Positions 6,929 through 52,641 of a stretch of 58,413 nt of DNA are shown here, piece by piece; positions within the stretch are counted from its first letter, which is position 1; the number at the start of each line of letters is the position of its first letter. This stretch comes from an uncultured bacterium (GTDB taxonomy: Bacteria > Hydrothermota > Hydrothermia > WGAB01): contig CAYQZW010000001.1 of NCBI GenBank assembly GCA_964422065.1, positions 1 through 58,413 on the forward strand, written 5' to 3'. The notes beneath the pieces are model-generated. The model had not been told where the DNA came from. It worked only from the letters and a program-made list of their open reading frames with translations, and did not search any database. The position numbers and the translations under genes are program-made.

Positions 6929-7684
6929 TTAGAGGACCTTTTTCTCGCGCAGGATCTCAAGGAGCCGTTCCACATTTTTCGGGAACTCGTCTTGGATCAC
7001 GATCCCAGCCTCTTTTTGGGGCGGCATTTCCATGTGATCCAGAGCGAGTGCGCTCTCCGGGAGTGAGACCTCTACCTCGTCAATCGGTTTCCGTTTGGCC
7101 ATCATGATGCCCCGGAGCGTGGGGAGCCGGGGCTCATTCAAGCCCTTTTCCGTGGTGATCACGCAGGGCAGCGGCGCCTCCACCTCAATGGCGCCATCGT
7201 CCGTCTCCCGGTGTGCCTTCACCTTGCCGTCCTGGACCTCCAGGTGCACGACGTAGGTCAGGAGGGGAACCCCTGCGAGGGTAGCGAGGTAGGCGGGCAC
7301 GAGTCCGAAGTTATCGTCCACCGCCTCTTTCCCCATCAATACGAGATCAAAGCCTTCCTGGCTCAGGAACTCATGGAACGCCTTTGCGGTGGCCTCGGGC
7401 GACACAAAGGGTGAGGCATTGATTTTCAGATGGACCGCGCGGTCGGCCCCCAATGCCAACGCATTCCGGAGCGTCTCTTTTGCTCCATCGTCGCCCAGAG
7501 AGACAGCCACGATCTCTGCGTCCCCGGCCTTTTCTTTGATCCGGAGCGCCTCTTCAATGGCGAACTCGTCATAAGGGTTGACCACATAATTCAGGTTTTC
7601 ACGGACGATATCGGTCCCCGTGTCGTTGACCTGGACGGGGATCCCGGTATCGGGAACTCTTTTGAGGAACACGATGAGTTTCAT
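6929..7684 (-). CDS. etfB: electron transfer flavoprotein subunit beta
   Basis: 251 aa starting MKLIVFLKRVPD, EtfB-like throughout, directly upstream of etfA. Confidence 0.9.
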   Translation of the reverse strand: MKLIVFLKRVPDTGIPVQVNDTGTDIVRENLNYVVNPYDEFAIEEALRIKEKAGDAEIVAVSLGDDGAKETLRNALALGADRAVHLKINASPFVSPEATAKAFHEFLSQEGFDLVLMGKEAVDDNFGLVPAYLATLAGVPLLTYVVHLEVQDGKVKAHRETDDGAIEVEAPLPCVITTEKGLNEPRLPTLRGIMMAKRKPIDEVEVSLPESALALDHMEMPPQKEAGIVIQDEFPKNVERLLEILREKKVL

Positions 7685-7704
7685 GGTTCACCTCCTTTTC
7701 CGGC

Positions 7705-8898
7705 TTATGATGGGCGGATGACGGACATGGCGACGGCCATACCGCCCCCGATACACAGGGTTGCGAGGCCACGATAGGCCTGGTATCGCTTCATGGCGTA
7801 GAGCAGGGTCACGAGGATCCGGGTCCCACTGGCACCGATCGGGTGCCCCAGCGCGATGGCGCCCCCGTGGACATTGACCTTGGACCAGTCAAATCCCAGG
7901 GCTTTGCCGTCGGCCAGGGTCTGGGAGGCGAACGCCTCGTTGATCTCAATAAGGTCAAAAGCCCCGATATCCTTCAGGCCGAGGAGGTCCATGAGTTTCT
8001 GGACCCCTGTAATCGGGGCAAAGAAGAGTTCCTTGGGCTCCACGGCCCCCGAGGTATAGCCCTCAATGATGGCCAGGGGCTCTAAGCCGCGTTTTTCGGC
8101 CTCCTCCTCGCTCATCAGGACCACCGCCGCGGCGCCATCGTTCAGGGTGGACGCATTGCCGGCGGTGATCATCCCGTCCTTTTCAAAGGCCGGCTTCAGT
8201 TTCGCGAGTTTCTCGACCGAGGTATCCTTCCTCGGCCCCTCGTCCACACGGACGACCTGGACCTCGCCCTTCCGGCCGGGCACTTCTACCGGCACAATCT
8301 CTTCATCAAAGAGGCCGTCCTCTATCGCTTTCACGGCTTTCCGATGGCTCTCGTACGCAAACTGGTCCAGTTCCGCTCGGGTCAACCCCGCCTTTTTGGC
8401 GGTGTATTCGGCGAGGTTCCCCATATGCAGGCCGGAGAACGCGTCGAGCAAGCCGTCATAGATCATGAGGTCAATGAGTTCCGCGTTGCCGTATTTGTGG
8501 CCCTTCCGGTAGTTCTTGATGGCGAAGGGGGCGTTGGACATGGACTCCATGCCGCCGGCGACGACGATCTTGGCCTGGCCCAGCGCAATGGCCTGGGCCC
8601 CGAGCATTACAGACTTTAAGCCAGACCCACAGACCATGTTGACCGTAAAAGCCGGGGTATGAGGGCTGACCCCTCCCTTGATCGCCGCCTGACGGGCCGG
8701 TCCTTGTCCTGCGCCACCCTGGAGCACGTTGCCCATGATGACCTCATCCACCTCTGCGCCGTCCAGGCGCGCCCGTTTGAGCGCCTCCCGGACCACGATG
8801 GCCCCGAGATCGGTCACCTCTAAGGCCGATAAGCCCCCCATGAACCGACCGATCGGGGTCCGAACTGCAGAAACAATGGCTACTCGCTTTTGTGCCAT
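7705..8898 (-). CDS. acetyl-CoA C-acetyltransferase (thiolase II)
   Basis: 397 aa with VAIVSAVRTPIG, active-site Cys context VNMVCGSGL, and C-terminal GLATLCIGGGMAVA. Confidence 0.9.
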   Translation of the reverse strand: MAQKRVAIVSAVRTPIGRFMGGLSALEVTDLGAIVVREALKRARLDGAEVDEVIMGNVLQGGAGQGPARQAAIKGGVSPHTPAFTVNMVCGSGLKSVMLGAQAIALGQAKIVVAGGMESMSNAPFAIKNYRKGHKYGNAELIDLMIYDGLLDAFSGLHMGNLAEYTAKKAGLTRAELDQFAYESHRKAVKAIEDGLFDEEIVPVEVPGRKGEVQVVRVDEGPRKDTSVEKLAKLKPAFEKDGMITAGNASTLNDGAAAVVLMSEEEAEKRGLEPLAIIEGYTSGAVEPKELFFAPITGVQKLMDLLGLKDIGAFDLIEINEAFASQTLADGKALGFDWSKVNVHGGAIALGHPIGASGTRILVTLLYAMKRYQAYRGLATLCIGGGMAVAMSVIRPS

Positions 8899-8944
8899 GC
8901 GAAACCTCCTTGTTTCCTCTCCCGCCCTGCCTGACCCGATGCTC

Positions 8945-9553
8945 TCAGACTACACCATTTTTCTTCTTGTGGTACTCCTGGAGTACCGACCGTTCATACG
9001 GCAGATCAATGAGTTTTTTCAACCCAATGACCGCCATCAGCCCCACGAGACGGATCCAATTGGCGGTGGACCCCACGACGCGAATCCCGGAAAATGCGAA
9101 GATCACCATGCCGATCGCCAAGGACAGATCAAAGTTCCGGGTGATGGCAAAAGCCAGGGCCACCACCGCCAGGAAGAAGGTGGTCAATCCGGGATAGAGT
9201 GCGAAGAAGAACCCATAGAGGGTGGAGATGCCTTTGCCGCCGCGGAACCGGAGGTAGATCGGGAACTGGTGTCCCAGCAACACGCAGAGTCCGGCGAACC
9301 ATACCGTTCCGGACCCCGGCCCATAGAGCCCCTGAGCCACCACGCCGACACTGAACCCTTTCAGGCCATCCAGGAGGGCTGCCAGGAACCCGAAGGGGAG
9401 CCCGGCAGCGCGTGCCGCATTGTGTGCGCCGACATTCCCATCGTATAGGCGTCGGAGATCTATCCCGCTCCGCCACCGGGCGATCAGATAGGAAAAGGGG
9501 ATCGCCCCGACGAGATACGCCCCCACAAAAAACAGCCATGGAGAAACGGCCAT
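8945..9553 (-). CDS. plsY: glycerol-3-phosphate acyltransferase PlsY
   Basis: 202-aa polytopic protein with GAIPFSYLIAR, GNVGAHNA and FRGGKGIST motifs. Confidence 0.9.
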   Translation of the reverse strand: MAVSPWLFFVGAYLVGAIPFSYLIARWRSGIDLRRLYDGNVGAHNAARAAGLPFGFLAALLDGLKGFSVGVVAQGLYGPGSGTVWFAGLCVLLGHQFPIYLRFRGGKGISTLYGFFFALYPGLTTFFLAVVALAFAITRNFDLSLAIGMVIFAFSGIRVVGSTANWIRLVGLMAVIGLKKLIDLPYERSVLQEYHKKKNGVV

Positions 9554-9616: not shown

Positions 9617-10711
9617 CTATGCCGTAGGTTTCCAGACCACAGATTTTGAGGTCCGGGTCTGCGCCCGGGCCAATGCCAGTTCGATCAGCCGGTCAATGAG
9701 GTCCGGGTAGGGGAGCCCGGAGGCTTCCCAGAGTTTGGGATACATGCTGATGGGGGTAAACCCGGGGATCGTATTGATCTCGTTGACATACATCGCGCCG
9801 GTCTCCCGATCCAGCAGGAAGTCGATCCGGGCCATGCCGGCAGCGTCAATGGCCCGGTAGGCGCGGATGGCCAGGTCCTGGAAGGCCTGGACCTGCGCCG
9901 GCGATAAGGGGGCCGGGATCAGGAGTTCCGAGCGGTCGTCCAGGTACTTCGCCTCGTAGTCGTAGAACTCCCGAGAAGGCCGGATCTCGCCTGGAACCGA
10001 GGCCTCGGGACGCTCGTTGCCCAGGACACTCACCTCAATCTCCCGCGCCGGGATCCCCTGCTCGACCAGGACCTTGGTATCGTACTGGAACGCCAGGGTA
10101 AGGGCCTCTGCCAGGTCATCCCACCGCTTGACCTTGGTGATGCCGATGCTGGACCCCAGATTGGCGGGTTTCACAAAGACCGGGAGCGGGAACTGCTCCC
10201 GGAGGCCCCGAACCACGCCCGCCGGGTCGTCCTGGAAATCCACCTCAAACACCACCTCAAACGGGACCACCGGGATGCCGTGGGCCTGAAGCACCGCCTT
10301 GGTCAGGACCTTATCCATGGCGACCGCGGATGCGGTGACCCCAGCGCCGACATACGGGATCCCCTCCAGTTCCAGGAACCCCTGGACCGTCCCGTCTTCG
10401 CCGAACGGGCCGTGGAGCAACGGGAAGACGACATCCTGTTGCCGGAGTACGTGGAGGACCTGGGCGGAGAGCCGTTCCTCTCGGGCCTGGACCAGCGGAT
10501 GGTCATCTTCAAACGCCGGGAGGCCGGCCAGGAGTTCTTGCTCGAACCGGGGATCCGCGACCCAGAACCCACCCCGGGTGATCCCGATGACCGTGACCTC
10601 ATAGCGGCTACGGGAAATGACCTGGAGCACGGAACGAGCAGAGATTAAACTGATCTCGTGTTCGGCGGACCGACCGCCACAGAGGATTGCGAGTCGGATC
10701 GGCTTACGCAT
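9617..10711 (-). CDS. ddl: D-alanine--D-alanine ligase
   Basis: 364 aa with LCGGRSAEHEISL, an ATP-grasp region and EINTIPGFT. Confidence 0.9.
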   Translation of the reverse strand: MRKPIRLAILCGGRSAEHEISLISARSVLQVISRSRYEVTVIGITRGGFWVADPRFEQELLAGLPAFEDDHPLVQAREERLSAQVLHVLRQQDVVFPLLHGPFGEDGTVQGFLELEGIPYVGAGVTASAVAMDKVLTKAVLQAHGIPVVPFEVVFEVDFQDDPAGVVRGLREQFPLPVFVKPANLGSSIGITKVKRWDDLAEALTLAFQYDTKVLVEQGIPAREIEVSVLGNERPEASVPGEIRPSREFYDYEAKYLDDRSELLIPAPLSPAQVQAFQDLAIRAYRAIDAAGMARIDFLLDRETGAMYVNEINTIPGFTPISMYPKLWEASGLPYPDLIDRLIELALARAQTRTSKSVVWKPTA

Positions 10712-39366: not shown

Positions 39367-39513
39367 GGATCACCTCCATTCACACTTTATTGTAACCGAT
39401 TTTCTCAGTCCTCTGATGAGTCCAGGTTCGGGTGTAAAATACAGGCTCAAAAGCCAGGCTTGGTCAAAAATCAAAGAACTTGGGTGGTGTGAGGCCCAGG
39501 GAAGGAGTTGGGA

Positions 39514-42500
39514 ATGATTCTGAGGGTGTTGGTTCTTGCGGTGGTTGCTGGGACGGGGGGTGGCATAAAGGTGGAGGCCCAATCAACTCAGGTTACTCGG
39601 CTCCGGATTTCCGTGGTCCCCCACTCCCGGATCGCGGCCCTCGTGGCTGTCCCGGAGGGGAGTGTCCCCGAGGTCCGTATGGTTGAGCCGAAGAGCGCCC
39701 CCGGCCTTCAACTGGAGAGCCATCCCGTGGCCAAGATCCGGGACTTTACCGTGATCCCCGTCACGATCCGGGCAGATTCCCTGGACTCTGTGGCGGAGGT
39801 CGTTGTGGACGTACTCCATCCCGGCGGGGCGTACCCCAGGACATACACTCCGAGTTTTGAGGGCTTGTACCGTCAGGTGATTGTGAACTTTGAGGCCCTT
39901 TCCGTCTCTCCGGCCCCTCCTGTGGTGCTGGAGCACCCCGAGGGTGCCCGGTACCTCATCATTGCCCCGGACAATTTCGTAGGGGCGTTGCAGCCCCTTG
40001 TGGAGTGGAAGACCCAAAAGGGGATGCTGGCGAGGATTGTGCCCCTCTCGTTGACCGGGGCGTCGTCCGCGCAAATCAAGAACTACATCCAGACAGCCTA
40101 CGATACCTGGGAGATCCCTCCCGAGTTTGTCCTTCTGGCAGGGAGCGCCCAGCAGATCCCCTTCACCGGCACGGACAACTTCTATGTCACCGTGGATGGA
40201 ACCGATCCCTTGATCGACATCTTTGTGGGCCGGTTCCCGGCGAATACGGAGACAGAGATCGCCACCATGGTCGCCAAGACCGTAGCCTACGAGACGGTCG
40301 ATCCGGTATGGCCGGACACCCTATGGTTCGAAAGGGCCACGATCATTGTTCGCAACGATTATGATGATGACGATTCGATTTATTACGCGGACGCCCAGGT
40401 CGCCCAGACCTACCTCCGGCATGAGGGGTATACCCAGGTGGATCTTTTTGACCGTTTACATGGGAACACGGCGTCGGATGTCATCCTCAGTGTGAACGAG
40501 GGACGTTCGATCGTTTTTTATCGGGGCCAGGGGGTGGGCAACTGGTGGCCTCCTTTCGAAGTGAACCCCTATGGGCTCCAAAATGGATGGAAACTCCCCA
40601 TCGTCATCTCAACGACCTGTGCGACCATTGATCCCTACACCGGAAATGCCGCTGGAGAGCAGTGGATGAAGGCCGGAACAGCGTCGAGTCCCAAGGGGGC
40701 CGTGGGCTTCTTCGGCACCACGACCGTCCGAAGCCATGTCGCTCACTTACGGAGTGCCGTGGCCCAGGGGTTTTTCTATGCGGCCTTCGATACCCCCTAT
40801 GTCTCGACTCTGATGGAAGCCTGCGAGGTCGGCCGGCTGAACCTCCTCTTTACTTACGGGGACCTGACCGACTACAACGGCTTTCTCCTATTGGGCGATC
40901 CGGAATTGACCCTCCGCACAAAGGTCCCCCAACCCCTGAATGTCATGTATCCGAACGTGGTTCCCGTGGGTCAGGCTGACCTGACCTTCTGGGTCTCCGA
41001 TCCTAACGGTCTCCCCGTCCCCGGCGCCCTGGTGGCCCTCTCTCTGGATACCCTTTTTGATGCCTTTGGCTATACGGATTCCACGGGTTCCGTGACCTTT
41101 TCGGTAGATCTGAGTGTGCCGGGGTTCCTGGATTTTCAGGTGACCCGACGGAACTATTTGCCGTACCAGGATTCGTTGGCGATTATCCCGGAGGGGCCCT
41201 ATCCCGGTGAGGTCTCCTACCTCTTCCACGACGATCAAGGGAATGCCGATGGCCACCCAAATCCAGGTGAGACCCTCAGGTTGGACCTCAGGGTTATCAA
41301 TGTAGGAACACAAGACGCCCATAACCTTCAGGCAATCTTGCGTTCTCCCAGTCCTTCCCTTGTGCTTCAGGATTCCACGGCGTGGCTCGGGACCCTGGCT
41401 GCCGGAGACTCCCTCTGGATCCCCGACGCCTTCCGGCTCTGGATCCGTCCGGATGCCACAGCCGAAGAGCCTTTAGCCCTCGGCGTGGCCTTCGAAGCGA
41501 CGGAAGGTTCCTGGACCCTCCCTCTGCCTCCACTGGTGGTTTACGCCCCCAAGGCCGTTGTCCTGGGGTTCCGCCTGGAAGACCCTGTCCCAGGGGGCAA
41601 CGCCAACGGTCAGCCCGAGCCCGGAGAAGCCGTGAAACTTTACCCGATCTTCAAAAACACAGGCAACGCCCCCCTGGGGCTCTCCACCCTTCACCTCTTA
41701 CCCAACGACCACTATGGCACGTCAGACGGCCAGAGTTACCTCCTCTCCCTGAACCCTGGACAAACCGATACCCTCTCTGATCCCCTGGCCATCGTCATTG
41801 ATCCGTCACTGGTAGCAGGCACCGTACTCACCCTTCCCATTGAAATTCAGGGGGACGCGGAGACCTATGTGTATCGAGATACGACCTCGTGGGATCTTGT
41901 CATTTCAGGAGTGCCTCAAACCTCGTTGCCTACAGGGCCAGATGGGTATGGCTATTACATCTACGACGACACGGATCTCTCCTCCGGGAACGCTCCGCCC
42001 TTTGCGTGGGTAGAGATCGCCCCACCCGACGGGCCGGGCACCTTGATTCCGGAGATCACCGACCAAGATGCGGATACGGTGACCCTACCGCTCCCGTTTA
42101 CGTTCGTCTTCTACGGCGATACCTTTACCCAGATCGGAGTTGCGTCTAACGGGTTCCTCGAGCTCGGAGGCTCTACGTATCGGTTTGGCGCCAACGAACC
42201 GATCCCCCAGGCTGGTGGGCCGCGCGCCCTGATCGCCCCCTTCTGGGATGACTTGGACCCGTCCGTGGGCGGCGATATTTATCAATGGTATGACTCCGTC
42301 GGACACCGATGGATCGTGGAGTTCAAGGATGTGGAACATTACGGCGGTGGAGACCCAGAGACCTTTGAGGTCATCCTTCTCGATCCCGCATATGATCCCA
42401 CGCCGACCGGGGACGGTGAGATCCTGATCCTATACCAGGTCGTCTCAGACATCTCTTCGGCGACAGTTGGGATCGAGGACCCGACGGAATCGATCGGCAT

Positions 42501-43260
42501 ACAGTACGTGTTCAACAACGGGTATGATCCCTATGCGACGCAGATTGCGAGCGGTCGAGCCCTCCGCATCACGACGGTTCCTCCCCAGGCCCAACCGCCC
42601 ACTCTTTGGGTCCACACCGTAGACACCTTTGCCCTCGCGGATACCGTAGGAGGCAATGGGGACGGTGTCCCCGAGCCCGGAGAGACCCTGGAAGTCTGGA
42701 TTCCGTTAACCAATGGCGGAGTGGCGACCGCCCCAGAAGTCCGATTGACGGTCACTCAACCCCTCTCCCAGGTCCATCTCCTGGATTCCATCGTCACGTA
42801 CGGGGATCTTGCCCCTGGGGATACGGTCTGGCCGACATCGCCCTGGCGGGTGGCCATCGCACCAGAGTTTCCGGATACTGGGGTGGAGTTCACCTTGAAC
42901 ATCGAAATCCAGGACACTCTGGGGACGTTGATTGAATATTGGGGGCTCCTGTTTACGGTATACCAGACCCAGGAAGCCTCTCTACGACCTCCTCTGGTCT
43001 GGCGCTTGGGGCCGGTCTATCCGAACCCCTCTCCGGGGTCAATGCTGCTGCGGTTTGAAGTGCCGAAGCGGACCTCGGTGTCGTGGAGGGTATACGATTT
43101 GAGTGGCCGTCGTATCGTTGCGCACCGGCAGGTCTTCCGGCCTGGGATCTACACCGTCCCGGTCTTTCAGCCGGCCGAGGTTCCGCCCGTAGGCCTTTAC
43201 TTCCTTACTGTCCGTGCAGGACGTCATCGCTGGACGACGAAGGTCATGTTGGTCCGCTAA
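39514..43260 (+). CDS. peptidase C25 (gingipain) family protein with CARDB-like and NIDO-like modules and a T9SS C-terminal domain
   Basis: C25 core YLIIAPDNFVGALQPLVEWKTQKG...FVGRFPANTETEI...FYRGQGVGNWW...LPIVISTTCAT. Repeated xPEPGET modules. C-terminal WRVYDLSGRRI...GLYFLTVRAGRHRWTTKVMLVR. ATG 39514 lies 6 nt after GAAGGAG. Confidence 0.8.
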   Translation: MILRVLVLAVVAGTGGGIKVEAQSTQVTRLRISVVPHSRIAALVAVPEGSVPEVRMVEPKSAPGLQLESHPVAKIRDFTVIPVTIRADSLDSVAEVVVDVLHPGGAYPRTYTPSFEGLYRQVIVNFEALSVSPAPPVVLEHPEGARYLIIAPDNFVGALQPLVEWKTQKGMLARIVPLSLTGASSAQIKNYIQTAYDTWEIPPEFVLLAGSAQQIPFTGTDNFYVTVDGTDPLIDIFVGRFPANTETEIATMVAKTVAYETVDPVWPDTLWFERATIIVRNDYDDDDSIYYADAQVAQTYLRHEGYTQVDLFDRLHGNTASDVILSVNEGRSIVFYRGQGVGNWWPPFEVNPYGLQNGWKLPIVISTTCATIDPYTGNAAGEQWMKAGTASSPKGAVGFFGTTTVRSHVAHLRSAVAQGFFYAAFDTPYVSTLMEACEVGRLNLLFTYGDLTDYNGFLLLGDPELTLRTKVPQPLNVMYPNVVPVGQADLTFWVSDPNGLPVPGALVALSLDTLFDAFGYTDSTGSVTFSVDLSVPGFLDFQVTRRNYLPYQDSLAIIPEGPYPGEVSYLFHDDQGNADGHPNPGETLRLDLRVINVGTQDAHNLQAILRSPSPSLVLQDSTAWLGTLAAGDSLWIPDAFRLWIRPDATAEEPLALGVAFEATEGSWTLPLPPLVVYAPKAVVLGFRLEDPVPGGNANGQPEPGEAVKLYPIFKNTGNAPLGLSTLHLLPNDHYGTSDGQSYLLSLNPGQTDTLSDPLAIVIDPSLVAGTVLTLPIEIQGDAETYVYRDTTSWDLVISGVPQTSLPTGPDGYGYYIYDDTDLSSGNAPPFAWVEIAPPDGPGTLIPEITDQDADTVTLPLPFTFVFYGDTFTQIGVASNGFLELGGSTYRFGANEPIPQAGGPRALIAPFWDDLDPSVGGDIYQWYDSVGHRWIVEFKDVEHYGGGDPETFEVILLDPAYDPTPTGDGEILILYQVVSDISSATVGIEDPTESIGIQYVFNNGYDPYATQIASGRALRITTVPPQAQPPTLWVHTVDTFALADTVGGNGDGVPEPGETLEVWIPLTNGGVATAPEVRLTVTQPLSQVHLLDSIVTYGDLAPGDTVWPTSPWRVAIAPEFPDTGVEFTLNIEIQDTLGTLIEYWGLLFTVYQTQEASLRPPLVWRLGPVYPNPSPGSMLLRFEVPKRTSVSWRVYDLSGRRIVAHRQVFRPGIYTVPVFQPAEVPPVGLYFLTVRAGRHRWTTKVMLVR

Positions 43261-43640: not shown

Positions 43641-46076
43641 ATGGCAAACAAAAAGAAGGTTGTCGTTCCCGTTTCTGGGATGACGTGCACGAGTTGTGCA
43701 CGCACAGTGGAGAATGTGGCCAAGTCCACACCCGGCGTGGAGGAGGCCAAGGTGGAGTTCGCGGCCGGGCAGGCCGTGTTGGTCGTGGATCCCGATGTTC
43801 TGGAACCGGAGAAACTTCGCAAGGAGATTGAAGAGTTCGGATATCACCTCGGCATCGAGTCTACCCGACTCCAGGTCTTGGACCCCATCGATCCTGACGA
43901 GGCCCGGACAATCGAGCAGGTATTGCTCGAGGCCCCCGGAGTCCTTGACGTCGAGGTCCATAAGGTCACGGGGGTCATTCAGATCCGGTACACCCCAGTG
44001 GACTACCGGACAGAGGAAGTCCTCCGGCGTCTCCGTAGTCTGGGGAAGCGGGCCGAGGCCTTGGAGGAGATCCAGGATGTCTTCGAATTGGAGGAACGTG
44101 AGCGTGCACGCCACGTTCGGGCCCTGCGGAATCGCGTCATCGTAGGGATTCTCCTTTCAATTCCGATTGTGATCGGTACCTATGTGAAGAACCTGCCCTT
44201 CCTCTCGAATCCCTGGGTCCTCTGGCTCTTGGCAACTCCCGTTCAGTTCTACGTCGGCAGTAAGTTCCTCCGGGGTGCCTGGGGCGCACTCAAACACCGA
44301 ACGGCGGACATGAATGTCCTGGTTGCCCTGGGTACGCTGGCGGCTTACTTCTCCTCTCTGGCCTTTCTCCTGTTCCCCCAATTTTTCGCGAGATCCCAGA
44401 TCATTCAGGCTGAGGTCTATTTTGATGCCGCCGCAGTCATCGTCACGTTGGTGCTCTTAGGGAAATACTTGGAGGCCCGATCCCGAGCAAGAACAACAGA
44501 AGCCATGAGGAAACTCATGGCGCTCCAAGCGAAAACCGCCCGCGTCTTACGAGACGGTCAGGAGATCGAGGTCCCGATTTCGGAGATTCGTCCCGGGGAT
44601 CAAGTGATTGTACGGCCGGGCGAACGGGTCCCGGTGGATGGCGTGGTGCTGGAGGGGACCAGTTATGTAGACGAGTCCATGCTCACCGGGGAGCCCGTGC
44701 CTGTCCAGAAGGCACCGGGAGACGAGGTCGTGGGTGGAACCGTCAACCAATCCGGGCTCTTGAAGATCCGGGCCACGCGGGTGGGCGAGGAGACGGTCCT
44801 GGGTCAGATCATCCAGTTGATCCGTGACGCCCAGCGGAAGAAGGCCAACATCCAGCGCCTCGCCGATCGGATTGCGGCCATCTTTGTGCCCATTGTCTTT
44901 GGGATCGGGGCCCTCACCTTTATCGTCTGGATGATCTGGGGCCCGGCCCCGCAGTTCAACCACGCCCTCCTCTCCATGATCGCGGTGCTCGTTGTGGCGT
45001 GCCCGTGCGCCCTGGGGATCGCGACCCCTCTGGCCCTCACCGTAGGTGTAGGGAAAGGGGCAGAACATGGCATCCTCATCAAGAACCCGGAGGCCCTGGA
45101 GAAGGCACGCGAGATTGATGCGGTGGTCTTCGATAAGACCGGGACCCTAACCCTTGGCCGTCCAACGGTCACCGAGGTCTGGGTCCTCCACCGGGATGCG
45201 TCTGAGGTTCTCGCCCTGGCCGCTTCGGCGGAAACCGCGTCGCAGCACCCCCTCGCAGAAGCGATTGTCGAGGAAGCCAAAAACCGTGGCCTCTCCATCC
45301 AGATGCCGGAAGAGATGCAAGACTTTCCTGGACGCGGGGTCCAAGCCCGAATTGGCGATCAATGGGTCCGGGTCGGCCGACCCTCATGGTTTGAAGAAGA
45401 CGGGGTTCCCATCCCCGCAGAGTTCCAGGAAAAAGCTGAGGCCATGGAGCAACAGGCGATGACCGTGGTGGCTGTGGGCTCGCCGGAGGAGGTCTGGGGG
45501 CTCCTGGGCATTGCAGACCCGATCAAGCCCGAGGCGGCGGAAGTGGTGAACATCCTCAAACGCCAACACATCCGGGTCATCCTTTTGACGGGAGATAATG
45601 AGCGGACCGCGAAGGCCGTCGCACGATCCGTAGGGATCGAAGAAGTGATCGCACAGGTCCTGCCCCAGGACAAGACGCATGTGGTCGAGACCTTACAGGC
45701 CCGAGGGCACCGGGTGGCAATGGTCGGGGACGGCATTAACGATGCCCCCTCGTTGGCGACCGCGAATCTGGGGATCGCGATGGGGACAGGGACCGACATT
45801 GCTGGCGAGGCCGGGGACATCGTGCTCCTTTCCGGCAATCTGAAACTTGTCCCTGCCGCCATCCATCTGGCCCGCGCGACCCTTCAGACCATCAAACAAA
45901 ACCTGTTCTGGGCCTTCTTCTACAACGCTACCCTGATCCCCATAGCCGCGGGTGTCCTGTATCCGTTCACGGGTTGGGTGTTCCACCCGGTCTGGGCTGC
46001 CGCCGCGATGGCGACGAGTTCGGTCTCCGTTGTCTTGAACTCCTTACGACTCAAACGAACGCGTTTGGAGGTGTGA
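43641..46076 (+). CDS. copA: copper-translocating P1B-type ATPase
   Basis: N-terminal HMA domain [13 protein letters not shown] motif (VVACPCALG), [15 protein letters not shown]. Confidence 0.95.
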
Positions 46077-46474: not shown

Positions 46475-49099
46475 TTACTCTACTTTCACAAAACGCAAGG
46501 CCGTTCGTTGTCCCGCCGGTGGACTGTCCAGGCGAATCAAGTACACCCCGGCCCGCAGGCGACTCGTGGGGATGACTGTACGGGTCGTGGTCGGTGTCAA
46601 GGTGAGTGTGGGAAGGACCCTTCGGCCGGTGATATCGAGGATCTGGGCCTGAACAGGACGGTCAAGGCGGTGGATCAGCACCAATTGGGTTCGCACCACA
46701 GGGTTCAAGAGTTGGATTGTGGGAGGGAGCACATGGACGGGGTCCTGCTCTTCGACCCCTACGCCCAGCCAGTTGAGCATTCGGGCCAGGAGTTCCGCCC
46801 GGGTGGTCCGGCCCTGAGCCTCACTCGTGATCGCTTCGAAGGGGAAGGACATGAAAATGGTCTTGTATGTCCCGGCATCGTATTTCACCATCGCGGGCCC
46901 GAAGTTGCCAGAGCCGGTGGGTAAGGTGAAGTACAGGGATGTATCTGCCGGTGCGATGGCCTGGATCACATCACAGGACTGGCTGTTCCCAGCGCTTCCC
47001 GTTCCGTAAAGCTTCAGCAGTACGGAATCCCCAATGGGGTCTCCGTCATAACCCCGCGCCCCACGGTAATAGTTTCCAGTGCTCTGAACGGACGCCTTGA
47101 GGTAGTCTGTCATGAAGGACTGGGCCTGGTTGTCCTCAGCGAGGTTTTGGGAAGAGAGGATCAGGGAGCCGCCGGCGTTGAGATGGGCGATCAGGGCGTT
47201 CTGCTCGTCCGGGGTGAGCACGTTTCCCGTTTCATCGCCCGTAAACCAGAAGACCACACTCCGAGGATGGGCCAACAGGTCCGGTGCGCCGTCCGTTTGG
47301 GTTTTCCAGACTTCATAGACCAGTCCCATCTGATCCAGGGTTTGGGTGTAGTAGGTGAGGTAATCCGAGGTTCCCGCATCGTCCACCAACAGGAACGGGG
47401 GATACCCGATCAGGACCCGGAGGGTTTCTGCCGCATAGACGGGTTGGGGCGTGGAAGAGAATTCGATGATGAAATTGGCAAAACGGGGGACTCCGGCGAC
47501 CTGGAATTCAAAGACGTCCGACGGGACCACGGTATCCCCGTCTGCCAAGGCCCCAATGGTGATTGTGGGATCGGTAACGGTGATCTCGGGATCGTCTGTG
47601 GTCAGGGTCAGGGTGAGATCGGACGCATCTCGCCAGTGCCAGCGGTTCGAGACTTTGACGGTCATCTGGACAGTCTCGCCAGGCTCGGGTCGCCCGTCCC
47701 CATCGAACCAATAGTCTGTCACCCAAGGATACGTATAGAGGCCCAAGGCCAGGGATTGGTAGACATTCACCAGGCCCCAGCCAAGCATCCCTTCGTATCC
47801 CGGATTGACCTCATCGACATTCACGGCTCCCCACATGATGGCAGAGTCCACCTGATAGGCGGTCCAGGTGGGATGGAGCGAACGGATGAGGCCGGCGAGC
47901 CCACACACGATCGGAGACGCCATGGACGTTCCGTCGAGTTGCGTGTAGTTGCCGCCCGGAACGGTGCTCAGGATATTGGTCCCTGGCGCAATCACATCGA
48001 CCCAGGTCCCGTAGTTGGAGAAGTCCGCCTTGATGCCGTTCCTTGCGGAAGCCGCAACCGCAATCACGTTGGGGTAGGCCGATGGATAGTGGGGCGAGGC
48101 AGTATTGTCATTGCCTGCCGCAGCAACAATCGTGACCCCCATACTATGGGCATATTGCATGGCGCTGTTTTCTGAACCGTTGTAGTTGTAACTGCCATAG
48201 GAGTGGTTGGTCGCAACCGCACCTTGGTTGGCCGCGTAGTAAATGGCATTGATGGCAGCCGAGATGGAGACATATTGACCGTTTCCGCACTTGAAGGCCA
48301 TGCCCTTGACGTTCCAGCCGACCCCGGCAACCCCGATGCCGTTGTTCGTTGCGGCAACCGCGATCCCAAAGACATGCGTCCCGTGCTCATTCCCTGGCTC
48401 TGTCGGGTTAGGGTCCCAGGTATAATTCGTGAAGTTGAAACCGATGATGTCGTCAACATAGCCGTTGCCATCGTCATCCACGCCATTCAGGTCATCGGGA
48501 TAATCAAAGACGCCGTTCCCATTGAGGTCTTCCCCGGGGTTGACCCAGAGGTTGGGAAAGATGTCCGGATGGTCCCAGTCTACACCGGTGTCCACGGGCC
48601 CCACAACAATCGAAGAGTCTCCGGTGGTGATGTCCCAGCCCTCGGGAGAGTGGATATCGAAGTGGTGCCACTGTTGGGTCCAGTAGTCCGGGCCAAAGAG
48701 GGGATCGTTGGGCTCGAGATCCAGGGGTTTCAACTCATCTACTTCCGCCGATTCTACAGAAGAGAGCCGTTCAAACTCTTGGGCCAATGCAGGTGCATCC
48801 ACGTCCTGACCGAAGATCAGGAGGTAATAGCGATCCAGCCCGAACTCCTTGGCCTTGGGGGTCATCTTTCCGACGATGAGGCGTCGGACCTCTTTGAGAC
48901 CATACTGCTGTGCCAATTGGTCGATTTCCGGGATCCCCAGTTGGTTCCCGACCAGGGTATAGGCATCTCCCACACGCCCCCAAGAAAGGCTGGAGAGGAC
49001 CTTGGATTGGCTGGCCGGGGTGACCTGGATGATGAGATGGCGGGGATGATAGAGGATCTGAGGACTTGCCAATACCGCCGCAATCCACAACAAGATCAT
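46475..49099 (-). CDS. subtilisin-family (S8) serine protease with a T9SS C-terminal domain
   Basis: Catalytic triad contexts VGPVDTGVDWDHPD, HGTHVFGIAVA and GTSMASPIVCG. A CARDB-like GRPEPGETVQMTVKV module. C-terminal ILDITGRRV...GVYLIRLDSPPAGQRTALRFVKVE. Start moved to MILLWIAAV (ATG 49099, GGAGG 5 nt upstream). Confidence 0.9.
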   Translation of the reverse strand: MILLWIAAVLASPQILYHPRHLIIQVTPASQSKVLSSLSWGRVGDAYTLVGNQLGIPEIDQLAQQYGLKEVRRLIVGKMTPKAKEFGLDRYYLLIFGQDVDAPALAQEFERLSSVESAEVDELKPLDLEPNDPLFGPDYWTQQWHHFDIHSPEGWDITTGDSSIVVGPVDTGVDWDHPDIFPNLWVNPGEDLNGNGVFDYPDDLNGVDDDGNGYVDDIIGFNFTNYTWDPNPTEPGNEHGTHVFGIAVAATNNGIGVAGVGWNVKGMAFKCGNGQYVSISAAINAIYYAANQGAVATNHSYGSYNYNGSENSAMQYAHSMGVTIVAAAGNDNTASPHYPSAYPNVIAVAASARNGIKADFSNYGTWVDVIAPGTNILSTVPGGNYTQLDGTSMASPIVCGLAGLIRSLHPTWTAYQVDSAIMWGAVNVDEVNPGYEGMLGWGLVNVYQSLALGLYTYPWVTDYWFDGDGRPEPGETVQMTVKVSNRWHWRDASDLTLTLTTDDPEITVTDPTITIGALADGDTVVPSDVFEFQVAGVPRFANFIIEFSSTPQPVYAAETLRVLIGYPPFLLVDDAGTSDYLTYYTQTLDQMGLVYEVWKTQTDGAPDLLAHPRSVVFWFTGDETGNVLTPDEQNALIAHLNAGGSLILSSQNLAEDNQAQSFMTDYLKASVQSTGNYYRGARGYDGDPIGDSVLLKLYGTGSAGNSQSCDVIQAIAPADTSLYFTLPTGSGNFGPAMVKYDAGTYKTIFMSFPFEAITSEAQGRTTRAELLARMLNWLGVGVEEQDPVHVLPPTIQLLNPVVRTQLVLIHRLDRPVQAQILDITGRRVLPTLTLTPTTTRTVIPTSRLRAGVYLIRLDSPPAGQRTALRFVKVE

Positions 49100-49195
49100 A
49101 ACAACCTCCAGTTTTTCACGTTGGGCCAATGATACTTCTCAATCTTACTTCACAAAAGTGGGGAGAGCAAAACCGTGCTCCCGTGGACGACCCCC

Positions 49196-49828
49196 TCAGA
49201 CCAGGTGCAGCCAATCGTGGAACAGGAAGAATAGACGCCCGATCAACAGCGAAATACGGGCCATGATGGTGGACCCAAAGGACGCGCCAAAGGCGACCAT
49301 GATGAACATGATGCCGACCTTGGCCAGAAAGCCCAAGCCTCCCCGGTGCTCCTTGGAGAAGAAGAAGTAGACCAAGGTCGTGATGGTACTGACGACCAGG
49401 ATGATGTAGTTGATGGAGGTCCCCAAATGCCCGGTCCATAACGGGAGCATCCCTGCCTTGACCTGAGGCACGATGTAGCCCTGGATCGCACCGGTAATGC
49501 CCAAGCCTGCGCCCATCCCCACGGTGAAGGCGATGGCCCAACGGGAGAGCCAGGCGACCTTCGGAATGAACCGCAACAGCATCAAGAAGGACAAAAACGC
49601 CGGCACAATCAGGATATACCGCTCAAAGCCCGTGTTCGCGATCCAGGCATCAATCAGTTTGGGCTTGACATCAAAGAACCACAGATAGATAAACCAATAG
49701 GCGGCTGCGCTCCCCACATAGATGTGCTCGGCAAACTTATAAAACGGGTTGTCCCGATACAGGAAACTGAAGATGGCGAGCGTCAAACCCGCAGCAATCC
49801 ATGTGAACAGCACGTTCATGAAGGTCAT
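49196..49828 (-). CDS. polytopic (~6 TM) membrane protein, unknown family (operon gene D)
   Basis: 210-aa ORF with six hydrophobic segments. ATGA overlap with gene C. Confidence 0.7.
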   Translation of the reverse strand: MTFMNVLFTWIAAGLTLAIFSFLYRDNPFYKFAEHIYVGSAAAYWFIYLWFFDVKPKLIDAWIANTGFERYILIVPAFLSFLMLLRFIPKVAWLSRWAIAFTVGMGAGLGITGAIQGYIVPQVKAGMLPLWTGHLGTSINYIILVVSTITTLVYFFFSKEHRGGLGFLAKVGIMFIMVAFGASFGSTIMARISLLIGRLFFLFHDWLHLV

Positions 49829-50655
49829 GTCGGTCTCCTCCGGGTTCGCGTAAAGTAATAGCCGATGTTTCCGAGCAAGATGAAGAGGACGATGAGGATG
49901 TGGACCGCGGTCTGTGAGGCCATGCCAATCGACGCCGAGCCGGGTTGCTTGACCAAGACCTCATAGTCTGCTGCGCCCCGGAGCCCGCCGATCAGGCCCA
50001 CAATCTGATCCGCCTGGAGGTAAGGATAGAGGTCTGGCCACACCACGGCGGTAGCCGCCAGGATGATCTTCTGCCGGAACCGCGCCTGCGCAAACTGCAC
50101 CCAGTAGTCGCCCACCGATCCTGCCTCAAATCCGACGAGAAGCGCAATGTCGTTGTAATTGTGGATGTTTCGCATCATCGGCAAACTGTCCACAGGCGTC
50201 CCCCGATAATCTGTATTGAAGACGGTGCGGATTTCTTTGCCCATGTTGAGGATCACGGCCGCCAGGCCGGGCCGGTACCCCAGGAAGACATAGTCCACGC
50301 CATAGGTCTTGTTGAACTTCTGTGCCATCTTCTCCAGGGCGATCTGGCCTAAAGGCAGGCCCAAAGGCCAGTGGCCCATCATGACCACCTTCAGATTTTT
50401 CCGGAACAGATGGGTCAACATCGCCTCCAGCAGAGGCTGGAGTTCCGGCATGGAGGCGGCGTCGTAGTCAATGGAGATCAACACCACAGAGCCTTCCGGC
50501 AGTTCATCAATGGCCTTGTACGCCCGGGCCACCTCGGGGCTGGGCTGGAACTTCGGAACCAAATGCATAAAGAGGGGGATAGACGCCCCCAAGAAGACAA
50601 AGAGATAGACGATCCGTCGGTCAATTTTGCTGATTTGTTCCCAGAACTCTCTCAT
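49825..50655 (-). CDS. bitopic membrane protein: TM, ~210-aa globular domain, C-terminal TM; unknown family (operon gene C)
   Basis: 276-aa ORF. N-terminal anchor IVYLFVFLGASIPLF and C-terminal anchor VHILIVLFILLGNIGYYF. ATGA overlaps on both sides. Confidence 0.7.
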   Translation of the reverse strand: MREFWEQISKIDRRIVYLFVFLGASIPLFMHLVPKFQPSPEVARAYKAIDELPEGSVVLISIDYDAASMPELQPLLEAMLTHLFRKNLKVVMMGHWPLGLPLGQIALEKMAQKFNKTYGVDYVFLGYRPGLAAVILNMGKEIRTVFNTDYRGTPVDSLPMMRNIHNYNDIALLVGFEAGSVGDYWVQFAQARFRQKIILAATAVVWPDLYPYLQADQIVGLIGGLRGAADYEVLVKQPGSASIGMASQTAVHILIVLFILLGNIGYYFTRTRRRPT

Positions 50656-51437
50656 CGCAGATACGTCCTCTCAATACCCAAGATGATCCGCAGGGAGATC
50701 GCCACCGCACCCAGGGCCACACCGATCAAAATCCCGCGCTTGGCCCCCAGGTGCGGCACATTCATGATCCAATCTTTGACCGCAGGTAGGTTGTGGTACA
50801 GGAACTGGGTGACCGGATAGATCAGGATCAGGATTGCGATCGCGATGCCCCAGTTCAAAAGCCGCATGCTGGTCTCGGCCGTCTCCTGGCCCTCCCGGAA
50901 GAAGTGGAAGGCGAGGAGCGCTCCGGTCAAGACCACGACCGGCGGGATCGCGTAATAGCCTTTAGGCACATTCCCCAACATGACCAGCGCCGCAGCGACC
51001 AACAGGAGGGTCGCCGTCGACGTCCGTGCCCGGAACGCTCGGTACGCCGCCGACGCAATAAAGAACGCCAACAGAGAGAACATCGTCGCCTGGAGGGAGA
51101 CGAAGACGTACGTGTAGAAATAGCGCAGGAAAGTCGACGCGGGATCGAACGGGTTGCCGTATTTCACGCCGTCCCACACCCCCCAGATCAGGGTCAGGAA
51201 GAAACTCAAGATGAGGGCCAAGGAGTGGAACGCGCCCGGCTGCCGACGCCGGATGATCTTCCAGTGGTGCGCGAGTAGGCTGTCCACGCCCAGGATCAAT
51301 GTGAAGCCGGCCACGATAATGTACCAATCGTTGAACCGTTGTTCCAGGTCCCCAAAAGGCCAGTGCGGCACGAACAGGGCCACAATCAGGAGAAATCCTG
51401 AGATGAAGGTAATGGCTAACGGGACTTCTTTCTTCAT
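50652..51437 (-). CDS. polytopic (~8 TM) membrane protein, unknown family (operon gene B)
   Basis: 261-aa ORF, strongly hydrophobic throughout. 4-nt gap to gene A and ATGA overlap with gene C. Confidence 0.7.
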   Translation of the reverse strand: MKKEVPLAITFISGFLLIVALFVPHWPFGDLEQRFNDWYIIVAGFTLILGVDSLLAHHWKIIRRRQPGAFHSLALILSFFLTLIWGVWDGVKYGNPFDPASTFLRYFYTYVFVSLQATMFSLLAFFIASAAYRAFRARTSTATLLLVAAALVMLGNVPKGYYAIPPVVVLTGALLAFHFFREGQETAETSMRLLNWGIAIAILILIYPVTQFLYHNLPAVKDWIMNVPHLGAKRGILIGVALGAVAISLRIILGIERTYLR

Positions 51438-51441
51438 GGCC

Positions 51442-52605
51442 TCAATAGGTGGTGAAGAAGCGGGTTAAGAAGTGCAGATCCGCGCCTGTTAACAACGAAA
51501 TCGTTTCCAGGATGGAGCCGAGGAGGAACAAGAGGATGAGGATGAGTTTGACCAGGTCTTCGCCTTTGATGGTTGCCAGGGAGAGCGGGTCTTTGGAGAG
51601 ATATGCGCTCGCGGCATACATCTCTTCGCCGATCAGGGTGTAGTCCGTCGCCGCGATGAAGAACGGCAACTGGGTCACCGCGGTGGTCCCGGAGATCTGG
51701 ATCGCGCCGATGGAGTTCCCGGTCTCTGCCAGGATCAGGGATTCGGCATAGAAGTAGCCCTGGAGGAAGACGGCACCGGGCCGTTCGCGGACCATGATGC
51801 CGTCCACCCCGGCAGCATAGCCAAACTGGTCGTAGGAGAGGAAGAAGACATCGCCCTCGTTGTAGAGATCTGGCCGCCCAGCCTCGGTATAGCCCTCTTT
51901 GGTCACCTCTTGGGCGGCGACATAGACGACCGGATCAAAACACGGGACAATGAGTTTTGTGCCGTATTCGGCGGCCTTGAAGGCCACCCGCTTGAGGATG
52001 GCCAGGCCGGCCAAGGTGGCGATATTGGAAATCGGCTCTAAGCCCAAGACGAACAGGATGGGTCGGCCCAACTCGGTGGACCGCCCCACAGCATCGTCAA
52101 TGGCCTCAAGCCCCGCGATCCGACGGATGTAGAGTTCCCCGCCAGACTTGGCGCGCTGCAGGAAGTACAGCAGGACCCCGACGAAAAAGACCAAGATGAT
52201 CAAGGCATTCAATCGCCCTCGATGGAACCATTGGGCCGAGGCGATGGCCGGCTCGGTGGTCGTCTCTGAGTCCATATACTCCGAGTCTAACCAACTCCGA
52301 ACAAAGTAGTAATAGGGCTTGCCGTTTTTGACCCCCACGTCCTCAAACTTATGGGTTCCCCGGAGGACAAAGCCGGCGGACACCGGCTCGGCATCTGGGC
52401 TCCCCTCCAGGCGAAAGACCTCATATTTGGTGATCAGGGAGTCCATTGGGGAGGGCTCCCATTCGACGACGATCGCACCACCGTCGTCGTTGGGTTTGTC
52501 GTAGGCCCGGACATGGGTCACCGGGACGGGGATCAACGGAGGACGGGTGACCGTGTCTTGAACAGGTTGTCCGATCAGGAGCCCCAGTGCCAGGGTGAGA
52601 AACAT
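51442..52605 (-). CDS. membrane protein: signal/anchor, FN3-like ectodomain, TM, ~220-aa domain, C-terminal TM; unknown family (operon gene A)
   Basis: From ORF 51442..52611. ATG 52605 is preferred because it lies 6 nt after a -10 box. The FN3-like region is AYDKPNDDGGAIVVEWEPSP...KYEVFRLEG...GKPYYYFVRS. Confidence 0.7.
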   Translation of the reverse strand: MFLTLALGLLIGQPVQDTVTRPPLIPVPVTHVRAYDKPNDDGGAIVVEWEPSPMDSLITKYEVFRLEGSPDAEPVSAGFVLRGTHKFEDVGVKNGKPYYYFVRSWLDSEYMDSETTTEPAIASAQWFHRGRLNALIILVFFVGVLLYFLQRAKSGGELYIRRIAGLEAIDDAVGRSTELGRPILFVLGLEPISNIATLAGLAILKRVAFKAAEYGTKLIVPCFDPVVYVAAQEVTKEGYTEAGRPDLYNEGDVFFLSYDQFGYAAGVDGIMVRERPGAVFLQGYFYAESLILAETGNSIGAIQISGTTAVTQLPFFIAATDYTLIGEEMYAASAYLSKDPLSLATIKGEDLVKLILILLFLLGSILETISLLTGADLHFLTRFFTTY

Positions 52606-52611
52606 GGGCAA

Positions 52612-52641
52612 ATTTTAGAACGTCCCCACCTATGTTGTCAA
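52612..52641 (-). promoter_or_regulatory. promoter TTGACA-18-TAAAAT placed 6 nt from ATG 52605 (leaderless-type geometry)
   Basis: Minus strand reads TTGACA (52641-36), 18 nt, TAAAAT (52617-12), ttgccc, ATG. There is no SD. Confidence 0.5.

Follow-up and report, generated by a model that had tools for sequence, protein, structure and literature searches.

The question raised by this locus is what kind of membrane system is encoded by four adjoining minus-strand genes within the window (the whole stretch of 58,413 nucleotides that was analysed, from an uncultured bacterium of the Hydrothermota), and whether its subunits belong to any system already described. An ORF and junction check found the gene coordinates, the junctions and the promoter as an earlier note on this DNA had given them. 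Gene A (51442-52605) opens with ATG and encodes 387 aa; it is followed by gene B (50652-51437, 261 aa, a polytopic subunit), gene C (49825-50655, 276 aa) and gene D (49196-49828, 210 aa, likewise polytopic). Genes A and B are separated by a 4-nt gap (GGCC), and the B/C and C/D junctions are ATGA stop/start overlaps; the four genes are a genuine, translationally coupled unit. A TTG codon at 52611, two codons upstream of the ATG of gene A, is likewise open.

Ahead of gene A, on the same strand, a sigma-70-type promoter (TTGACA-18-TAAAAT, 52612..52641) matches at 11 of 12 positions; the pattern has its sole match in the region here, with shuffles averaging 1.3 matches, which leaves the pattern by itself without significance. 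The promoter is backed by a 96%-identical relative (L001), in which both hexamers and the 6-nt spacing are identical while 6 of the 18 spacer bases differ. The mRNA of gene A is probably leaderless, because the end of the -10 box lies 6 nt from the ATG and a Shine-Dalgarno sequence is absent. After the D stop codon, a weak hairpin followed by UUUU (49154..49182, minus strand; 7-bp centroid stem) is a candidate terminator that is not significant: the stretch as a whole folds no better than shuffles, and a terminator scan did not pick it up.

The product of gene A comprises a signal-like N-terminus, an FN3 domain and a globular part of ~190 aa flanked by two TM helices, the second of them C-terminal, a layout that the earlier note had described and that AF2, Foldseek, profile and hydropathy analyses bear out. 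The N-terminus is signal-peptide-like across relatives. The FN3 fold of the ectodomain (residues ~28-113; 52267..52524, minus strand) is recognised by profile and by predicted structure: residues 30-120 are modelled by AF2 at pLDDT >90, the model finds FN3 domains and no other fold when compared by Foldseek with the PDB (probability 1.0, target TM-scores up to 0.78), and the family profile finds titin FN3 among PDB sequences (E = 2.3e-9). The Pfam fn3 model gives no match to the window's gene A at E <= 1.

The earlier note had called all four proteins members of an unrecognised family, which is wrong for A, a clear member of a family that is catalogued though uncharacterised. Residues 123-373 (51487..52239, minus strand) match Pfam PF20539, DUF6754, at 363.1 bits against a gathering score of 27 bits (E = 8.5e-109, model positions 2-252 of 257). 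All A paralogues tested match this model, seven of them from other phyla at 361-413 bits. No exact copy of the gene turned up when source contigs were searched for its sequence. The domain occurs in 2193 clusters at 50% identity and is always C-terminal, preceded by 30 to 890 aa of FN3 repeats or unrecognised sequence. Members among the distant cluster representatives are named only "DUF6754 domain-containing" or "hypothetical", and in the literature we found no publication mentioning DUF6754 or PF20539 and none on a WOR-3 FN3 operon. Within the DUF6754 region of A, TM1 (residues 129-153) is followed by an alpha/beta half-domain (166-265), a strongly conserved segment (261-335) for which AF2 gives no usable model, and the C-terminal TM helix (~350-373). 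Twelve charged residues are invariant in the globular domain, and residues 261-324, within its most conserved part, have pLDDT <50 in AF2, their fold being left unmodelled.

The remaining subunits were also outlined correctly in the earlier note, which had given B ~8 TM segments, D ~6, and C a globular domain between two TM helices. The window's B has 8 hydropathy peaks, around a family core of ~6 TM helices, and residues 162-209 form a two-helix insertion present in part of the family. Its most conserved motif, SAAYRAFRAR, lies at the end of TM4, and R133 and E256 are invariant residues in or bordering TM helices. D has 6 hydropathy peaks and a probable seventh (6-7 TM), with N27, Y30, E34, R96, Q122, S158, R191 and R198 invariant across all paralogues. 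C consists of a TM helix (residues 13-30), an alpha/beta domain (40-235), a second TM helix (240-270) and a basic C-terminal tail; the AF2 model (pLDDT 89.5) gives the domain a six-stranded, Rossmann/flavodoxin-like fold. Invariant in C are D63, E71, D121, D149, Q217 and E232, together with Q248, H252 and N263 in the second TM helix. Foldseek against the PDB returns weak, generic Rossmann-like matches for C, including glycosyltransferase GT-B C-domains (best E = 2e-4, TM 0.34-0.45, rmsd ~13 A).

In searches that covered the window proteins and diverged relatives of B, C and D, these three subunits have no match in Pfam, NCBIfam, PADLOC or PDB sequences, and PDB-sequence profile searches with all four families find only the FN3 domain of A. 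Matches to Anthrone_oxy, DUF2298, ILEI, TrkH, LptG and SecD in Pfam, NCBIfam and PADLOC were rejected as noise, being far below the cut-offs and inconsistent between members. The PADLOC anti-phage defence models give no match to A-D at E <= 0.1. A motif scan detects neither a Walker A nor a Walker B motif in any of the four proteins; Cys content is 0-1 per protein, and the complex contains no redox or nucleotide-binding motif. The earlier view that the set lacks an ATPase, Walker motifs and any detectable tie to a characterised transport, secretion or respiratory family holds for the module, and the same is true of ties to defence. Homology between B and D, and internal repeats within either, are not significant.

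Topology was assigned by the positive-inside rule as the sole criterion. Family-wide, A has 4.0 K+R after TM1 vs 1.6 before it, and C has 3.7 K+R in the C-terminal tail vs 1.5 before TM2; the bias around TM1 of C is ambiguous (2.2 vs 2.8). The globular domain of A is thus probably cytoplasmic, with the FN3 domain periplasmic, and the alpha/beta domain of C is probably periplasmic, so that the charge bias would place the domains of A and C on opposite faces of the membrane.

The earlier note had asked whether the four genes co-occur in other genomes, and indeed they travel together across several phyla: A, B, C and D are all present in 80 of 80 related genome loci with enough sequence, nearly throughout in the order ABCD, with median junction gaps of 7 (A/B), -1 (B/C) and -4 (C/D) nt. 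The host lineages include WOR-3, Hydrothermota, Zixibacteriota, Ignavibacteriales, Eisenbacteria, Mcinerneyibacteriota and others. At Ignavibacteriales, Zixibacteriota, Deferrimicrobium and Mcinerneyibacteriota loci the whole module is tandemly repeated two or three times, and neighbour-joining trees of A, C and D recover the same position-specific clades. That the genes are real and coupled, are inherited together and evolve together is shown by these data, as is the domain architecture set out above. Co-occurrence, order, tandem repeats and the congruent A, C and D trees therefore argue for an obligate complex; an operational definition of such a complex by co-occurrence, order, coupling and congruent phylogenies fits the module in each of these respects, as read from the sequences. 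The one apparent exception, a complete-genome locus (L048) that seems to have lost D, reflects a stretch of N in its record, and a suspected A-B fusion (P0376) proved not to be a fusion.

The surroundings of the module were surveyed by clustering all ORFs within +/-8 kb of the 80 loci. In the window, 66 nt separate the end of D from an S8 subtilase of the same orientation that carries a T9SS sorting domain (TIGR04183, 24.7 bits; cut-off 23), as had been noticed earlier; the suggested link between this protease and the operon did not hold up, the neighbour being kept only in the 96%-identical relative. The only recurring conserved neighbour is lspA (PF01252), which overlaps the D stop codon in 18 loci, and the survey found no conserved ATPase or any other conserved neighbour. 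Its adjacency may be incidental; in other bacteria, lspA is found within mixed housekeeping operons. The 617-aa proteins near several loci are three unrelated things, namely an ABC-F protein, a MutL-like protein and a transglutaminase-like protein.

To account for these observations we tentatively propose, as a reading that is possible rather than probable, that A, B, C and D form one obligate inner-membrane complex, belonging to a widespread family without a characterised member, and that this complex acts as an ATP-independent translocase of envelope components or in their assembly. The topology, the assembly into a physical complex and the function are all inferred. B (6-8 TM) and D (6-7 TM) would form the membrane core, to which A and C would each contribute two TM helices. 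On the cytoplasmic side A would carry its charge-rich, very strongly conserved domain (~190 aa), and its FN3 stalk would be exported to the periplasm. C would present its Rossmann-like alpha/beta domain on the periplasmic face, with its invariant acidic and polar residues at what would be the C-terminal edge of the beta-sheet, where a Rossmann-like fold usually binds its ligand. Because an ATPase, a nucleotide-binding motif and a redox motif are all absent, the complex is proposed to operate independently of ATP, either by facilitation or coupled to an ion gradient. Its substrate would be an envelope building block (lipid-linked, glycan or lipoprotein-related), shifted or passed on from the cytoplasmic to the periplasmic face, and the variable FN3 stalk of A might reach toward the wall or the outer membrane. 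The transport or assembly role is assigned with low confidence, from architecture and the absence of other signatures.

The earlier note had favoured a different arrangement, in which a duplicated bitopic subunit (A and C, as paralogues) goes with two polytopic ones; this would amount to a pseudo-symmetric (A+B)/(C+D) complex in which each copy has one of the polytopic subunits as its partner. Each does have an alpha/beta domain between two TM helices, and a domain-only greedy hhalign is colinear over 152 columns (score 18.7, P = 0.05) and reproduces the motif pairs that had been aligned by eye. When the C profile is shuffled 100 times by column and 100 times by block, however, 13 and 48 of the shuffles, respectively, score at least as high, so that the by-eye alignments are no better than chance; BLASTP between A and C gives E of at least 0.22, and hhalign with two independent profile pairs gives probabilities of 0.5% and 1.1%. 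B and D are unrelated to each other as well, the charge bias suggests opposite membrane faces for the domains of A and C, and AF2 is confident on the domain of C but leaves unmodelled the half of A's domain that is supposed to correspond to it. That A and C, the two single-domain subunits, are detectably duplicates of each other is not supported, and we consider this layout very doubtful. The layout of C with a small permease also recalls a diverged ABC-2 or GldF-GldG-type transporter whose ATPase is encoded elsewhere, the likeness being a superficial one between a 6-TM permease plus a periplasmic alpha/beta protein anchored by N- and C-terminal TM helices and what is found here. An ABC-2 permease with a GldG-type auxiliary protein had been named beforehand as the outcome that would speak against an undescribed system, and was looked for through Pfam: in the window proteins and among 17 B relatives, 13 D relatives, 30 C relatives and 3 C paralogues there is no ABC2_membrane or ABC_transp_aux match even up to E 0.1, NCBIfam likewise has no ABC-2 match for the B and D sequences, no ABC ATPase is conserved within +/-8 kb of the 80 loci, and the ABC genes at two of them (L077 and L014) are of unrelated types and not conserved, all of which makes such a transporter scarcely credible.

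Two further readings keep the module as one system and give it another task. A could act as a receptor in the membrane, making the set a complex for sensing or signalling, in which the FN3 array senses or binds, DUF6754 relays, and B, C and D are accessory partners; an ectodomain that varies, attached to a cytoplasmic domain that does not, is just as fitting for a receptor. The constant C-terminal DUF6754 preceded by N-terminal parts of anything from 30 to 890 aa, the several diverged paralogous modules per genome and the lack of an energy-coupling motif all speak for it. We nevertheless judge this reading unlikely, given that no gene for a regulator, kinase, sigma/anti-sigma factor or cyclase is conserved next to the module across the 80 loci, that no subunit has a known signalling domain, that FN3 repeats are more typically spacers or binding modules than ligand sensors, and that a receptor would not usually bring along three more obligate membrane subunits with ~17 TM helices. 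The module could also be mechanical and driven by ions, as a stator-like motor or force transducer akin to ExbBD-TonB, TolQRA or GldLM, in which ion flow through B, D and the polar residues of C TM2 would do work passed on by the FN3 stalk of A. The absence of an ATPase, a periplasmic stalk of variable length, host phyla that use T9SS-sorted proteins, and invariant polar or charged residues in or edging TM helices (Q248, H252 and N263 in C; R96, Q122 and E34 in D; R133 and E256 in B) are in its favour. Yet no subunit or relative matches the MotA/ExbB, ExbD, GldL or GldM families in Pfam or NCBIfam, the subunit architectures differ (stator families are not known to have a TM-domain-TM subunit), and no outer-membrane or cargo partner is conserved nearby, which leaves the mechanical unit quite improbable.

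As a conjecture that falls short of probable, the module may represent an inner-membrane machine of a hitherto undescribed class, ATPase-free and facing the envelope, with folds and mechanism unrelated to known transporters, secretion systems and stators, that serves a housekeeping role in WOR-3 and Hydrothermota, has multiplied in Ignavibacteria, Zixibacteria and allied phyla, and possibly provides a new route for envelope precursors across the inner membrane. The A and D families each number >7600 clusters at 90% identity, and the module occurs once in small WOR-3 genomes and in up to three tandem copies elsewhere. None of the subunits has a characterised relative, and Pfam lacks three of them altogether; such a four-subunit complex, if true, would fill a gap in the biology of the cell envelope across a large block of uncultured FCB-related bacteria. 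Taking A+B+C+D, instead of one DUF, as the unit makes the module testable and gives annotators three new families to name.

Among the closest known entries and systems is PF20539 itself, whose model A matches nearly end to end (363 bits); it is a catalogue entry for one of the four subunits, silent on the B, C and D partners and on function. ExbBD-TonB, TolQRA and GldLM/PorLM are ATPase-free inner-membrane complexes with polar TM residues and a beta-sandwich periplasmic stalk, and the module is likewise ATPase-free, with conserved polar TM residues and such a stalk, but it differs in subunit number and topology and has no family match to them. Cellulose synthase BcsA/BcsB, an example of synthase-type polysaccharide export, combines a cytoplasmic domain between TM helices, a membrane-anchored periplasmic partner with a flavodoxin-like domain and carbohydrate-type beta-sandwich modules outside, and has no dedicated ATPase. 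The module is alike in its TM-inserted, probably cytoplasmic domain, flavodoxin-like and probably periplasmic partner, external beta-sandwich and lack of a dedicated ATPase, whereas its membrane part is split over four proteins, none of its subunits has a GT2 or PilZ match, and the matches of C to GT-B C-domains are weak and generic. In GldF/GldG, a small polytopic permease of FCB-group bacteria is joined by a protein whose helices at both termini anchor a periplasmic alpha/beta domain in the membrane. With GldA/GldF/GldG and other ABC-2/GldG-type systems the module shares the pairing of a small polytopic, permease-like subunit with a doubly anchored, probably periplasmic alpha/beta protein, both occurring in FCB-group bacteria; it differs from GldA/GldF/GldG in having neither an ABC2_membrane or ABC_transp_aux sequence match nor an ATPase partner, in the C domain of ~200 aa, which is one Rossmann-like unit, and in possessing a second bitopic subunit with a probably cytoplasmic domain and an FN3 stalk.

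The four genes A-D form a real, coupled, co-inherited and co-evolving module with a definite domain architecture. In the window they are open reading frames on the minus strand (A 51442-52605, B 50652-51437, C 49825-50655 and D 49196-49828), at the coordinates given in an earlier note made from the sequence alone, and their coupling is as it described: ATGA overlaps join B to C and C to D, and the junction between A and B reads TGA-GGCC-ATG. That note also proposed looking for the four genes together elsewhere, and among 80 genome loci fetched from relatives, B, C and D adjoin A in every locus that is sufficiently long. These loci come from WOR-3, Hydrothermota, Edwardsbacteria, Zixibacteriota, Ignavibacteriales, Eisenbacteria, Mcinerneyibacteriota, Deferrimicrobium and a MAG labelled Bacillota. 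The order is ABCD in 33 loci, ABCD followed by lspA in 18, and tandem multiples of the module in about a dozen, with median gaps of 7, -1 and -4 nt at the A/B, B/C and C/D junctions. Incomplete sets (A, AB or ABC) are mostly found at contig ends. The apparent loss of D and the C-terminus of C from a complete WOR-3 chromosome (CP070834.1, locus L048) coincides with a run of N at 10160-10260 in the stored record, and hence is not a biological exception. In one MAG (L034), a T9SS-sorted right-handed beta-helix protein (7288-9033; Beta_helix, NosD and Por_Secre_tail) lies between A and B and breaks the otherwise tight module.

Head-to-tail arrays of two or three complete modules occur in Ignavibacteriales, Zixibacteriota, Deferrimicrobium and Mcinerneyibacteriota (L057 2621-14992, L064 7839-16723, L069 60-10636, L076 4992-14132 and L077 1908-9065). 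Neighbor-joining trees of A, C and D agree with one another: copies group by position (1, 2 or 3) into separate clades that span phyla, indicating that the duplications are old, and the single-copy modules of WOR-3 and Hydrothermota form a separate clade. If the four proteins form an obligate complex, the module would be expected to duplicate as a whole and its subunits to diverge in parallel, as is seen here. Two diverged modules are present at separate loci, on different contigs, in each of five WOR-3 MAGs (L005/L052, L009/L053, L006/L054, L007/L055 and L008/L056); relative to A of the window, the two A copies have identities of about 66% and about 52%.

The putative promoter of the module, TTGACA-18-TAAAAT (52641..52612, minus strand), is present as previously read, with 11/12 matches and as the single site in the scan, but the pattern by itself proves nothing, because shuffled versions of the region average 1.3 such sites. 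The closest relative (L001, with A 96% identical) lends it weight: when the start region of A (window 52603-52641, minus strand; L001 4265-4304) is compared, both hexamers and the 6-nt spacing from the -10 box to the ATG are unchanged, while differences are found upstream and at 6 of the 18 spacer bases. Because the ATG of A stands 6 nt past the -10 box and no Shine-Dalgarno sequence precedes it, a leaderless transcript is probable. More distant relatives have, in place of this arrangement, a GGAGG ahead of the start of A and an extended -10 element (TGGTATAAAAT).

At the other end, D is separated by 66 nt, as had been stated, from a co-oriented S8 subtilase (46475-49129, minus strand), a large secreted protein whose T9SS sorting is upheld by an NCBIfam sorting-domain score of 24.7 against a cut-off of 23 bits; the intervening sequence has a weak hairpin. 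As for the co-occurrence of the protease with the module, which had also been raised, the subtilase comes after D in the window and L001 alone among these loci. The window's own neighbors are likewise unrelated: neither the subtilase, nor a large secreted gingipain-like C25 peptidase of 1250 aa (39508-43260, plus strand), nor the CopA-type P-type ATPase between the two (43641-46076) is conserved beside the module in other genomes. When all ORFs on the 81 sequences were clustered, the only recurring neighbor was lspA, the gene for signal peptidase II (PF01252), which directly follows D in 18 loci, its start usually overlapping the stop of D (L005 11352-11840, L009 11358-11828, L031 11345-11821, L078 11369-11854 and 14 others); in 8 of the 18, a 340-aa protein without a Pfam match comes next. 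The remaining flanking genes, among them those for AdoHcy hydrolase, Lon, TrkAH, asparaginase, ABC-F and a MutL-like protein, are mutually unrelated. The MutL-like protein (PF13941, 617 aa) is found with 250- and 373-aa proteins without Pfam matches in groups that lie divergently upstream of tandem modules (L064 3442-7246 and L076 881-4642, both minus strand).

The four proteins had been described as belonging to no recognized family, which stands for B, C and D and fails for A. Residues 123-373 of A match Pfam DUF6754 (PF20539) end to end (363 bits, E 8.5e-109); this is an uncharacterized domain, and full-text literature searches for either name returned no paper. The B, C and D proteins of the window have no match in Pfam or NCBIfam, nor do 17 diverged B, 13 diverged D and 33 C relatives scanned singly. 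PADLOC yielded no match to any of the four, and profiles of the four families found nothing among PDB sequences except FN3 for A. Walker A and B motifs are absent from A-D, as had been noted, and the four proteins together contain one cysteine. Database searches returned at least 7944 clusters at 90% identity for A, 1319 for C and at least 7657 for D, named only "hypothetical", "FN3 domain-containing" or "DUF6754 domain-containing". With the DUF6754 domain alone as query, a search of 1.84 billion representatives retrieved 2193 clusters at 50% identity, and E was <= 1e-30 for 778 of these. In the best-scoring 150 of these 2193 representatives, the domain is at or near the C-terminus (fewer than 40 residues follow it in 149), behind N-terminal parts of 30-890 aa that consist of FN3 repeats or unrecognized sequence. 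DUF6754 proteins P0361-P0510 from this search range from 298 to 1146 aa, and FN3 is recognizable in only some of their ectodomains.

The FN3-like ectodomain previously proposed for A is confirmed by an AF2 model of a sandwich (pLDDT >90), by Foldseek and by a profile match to titin FN3 (E 2.3e-9). It is followed by a TM helix (residues 129-153), an alpha/beta half-domain (166-265), a stretch that AF2 cannot model (261-324, pLDDT <50) and a long C-terminal TM helix. No other part of the protein is as conserved as this stretch, which is not hydrophobic enough for TM helices. Charge counts across the family (4.0 K+R after the first TM helix versus 1.6 before) place the globular domain of A in the cytoplasm, in keeping with export of the FN3 domain that follows the signal-like N-terminus. 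For C, a confident AF2 model (pLDDT 89.5, pTM 0.85) shows a six-stranded Rossmann/flavodoxin-like domain flanked by two TM helices, with weak, generic matches in the PDB (best E 2e-4, TM 0.34-0.45). The C-terminal tail of C averages 3.7 K+R and 0.25 D+E family-wide and is thus predicted to be cytoplasmic, which would make the C domain periplasmic, although the charge signal at the first helix is ambiguous. B of the window shows eight hydropathy peaks against a six-helix core in the family alignment, because of a two-helix insertion (residues 162-209, window 50811-50954) present in part of the family. The insertion is missing from most members and common to only some WOR-3 and Hydrothermota relatives. 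Hydropathy and alignment give D six to seven helices.

Judged across all paralogues, the invariant residues are R161, R175, E178, R273, E288, E294, D321, E327, E328, K347, D350 and K353 in A; D63, E71, D121, D149, Q217 and E232 in C, with Q248, H252 and N263 in its second TM helix; N27, Y30, E34, R96, Q122, S158, R191 and R198 in D; and R133 in B, where at least 95% of sequences keep E256. The AF2 model places the invariant residues of C just past the beta-strands, the usual ligand-binding edge of this type of fold.

We infer that A-D form one inner-membrane complex, in which B and D would be the membrane core, the conserved domain of A would lie inside, and the C domain and the FN3 stalk of A outside. 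The earlier note envisaged a different layout, with A and C as a duplicated subunit, and its most eye-catching claim, their paralogy, failed. BLASTP between A and C gave E >= 0.22, and hhalign gave probabilities of 0.5% with 30-sequence alignments and 1.1% with the 81- and 73-sequence alignments from the genome loci. A greedy, domain-only alignment is colinear over 152 columns and recovers both motif pairs that had been matched by eye (score 18.7, P 0.05), but a score this high is also reached by 13 of 100 column-shuffled and 48 of 100 block-shuffled C profiles. These results and the opposite orientations predicted for the two domains leave the paralogy unsupported, and B and D likewise show no relation to each other and no internal repeat. 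A and C may still share an alpha/beta fold, since the AF2 model covers only half of the A domain.

As to function, we prefer, with low confidence, a device that translocates or assembles an envelope component without ATP, because predicted domains lie on both faces, there are about 19 TM helices and no ATPase or redox signatures, and lspA is loosely linked. A receptor, a stator-like, ion-driven unit and the duplicated-subunit layout of the earlier note are rival readings of the same proteins. A diverged ABC-2/GldFG system is disfavored, since direct tests came out against it.

The module is widespread, clean and testable. No relation to any characterized system was detected; our searches found no description of the module itself or of three of its four families, and one subunit is catalogued as a DUF. 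Structure-library comparison covered C and the FN3 part of A; applied to B, D and the predicted cytoplasmic domain of A, it may yet uncover a remote link to a known system. Tentatively, and with the odds somewhat against it, A-D may be a truly new class.
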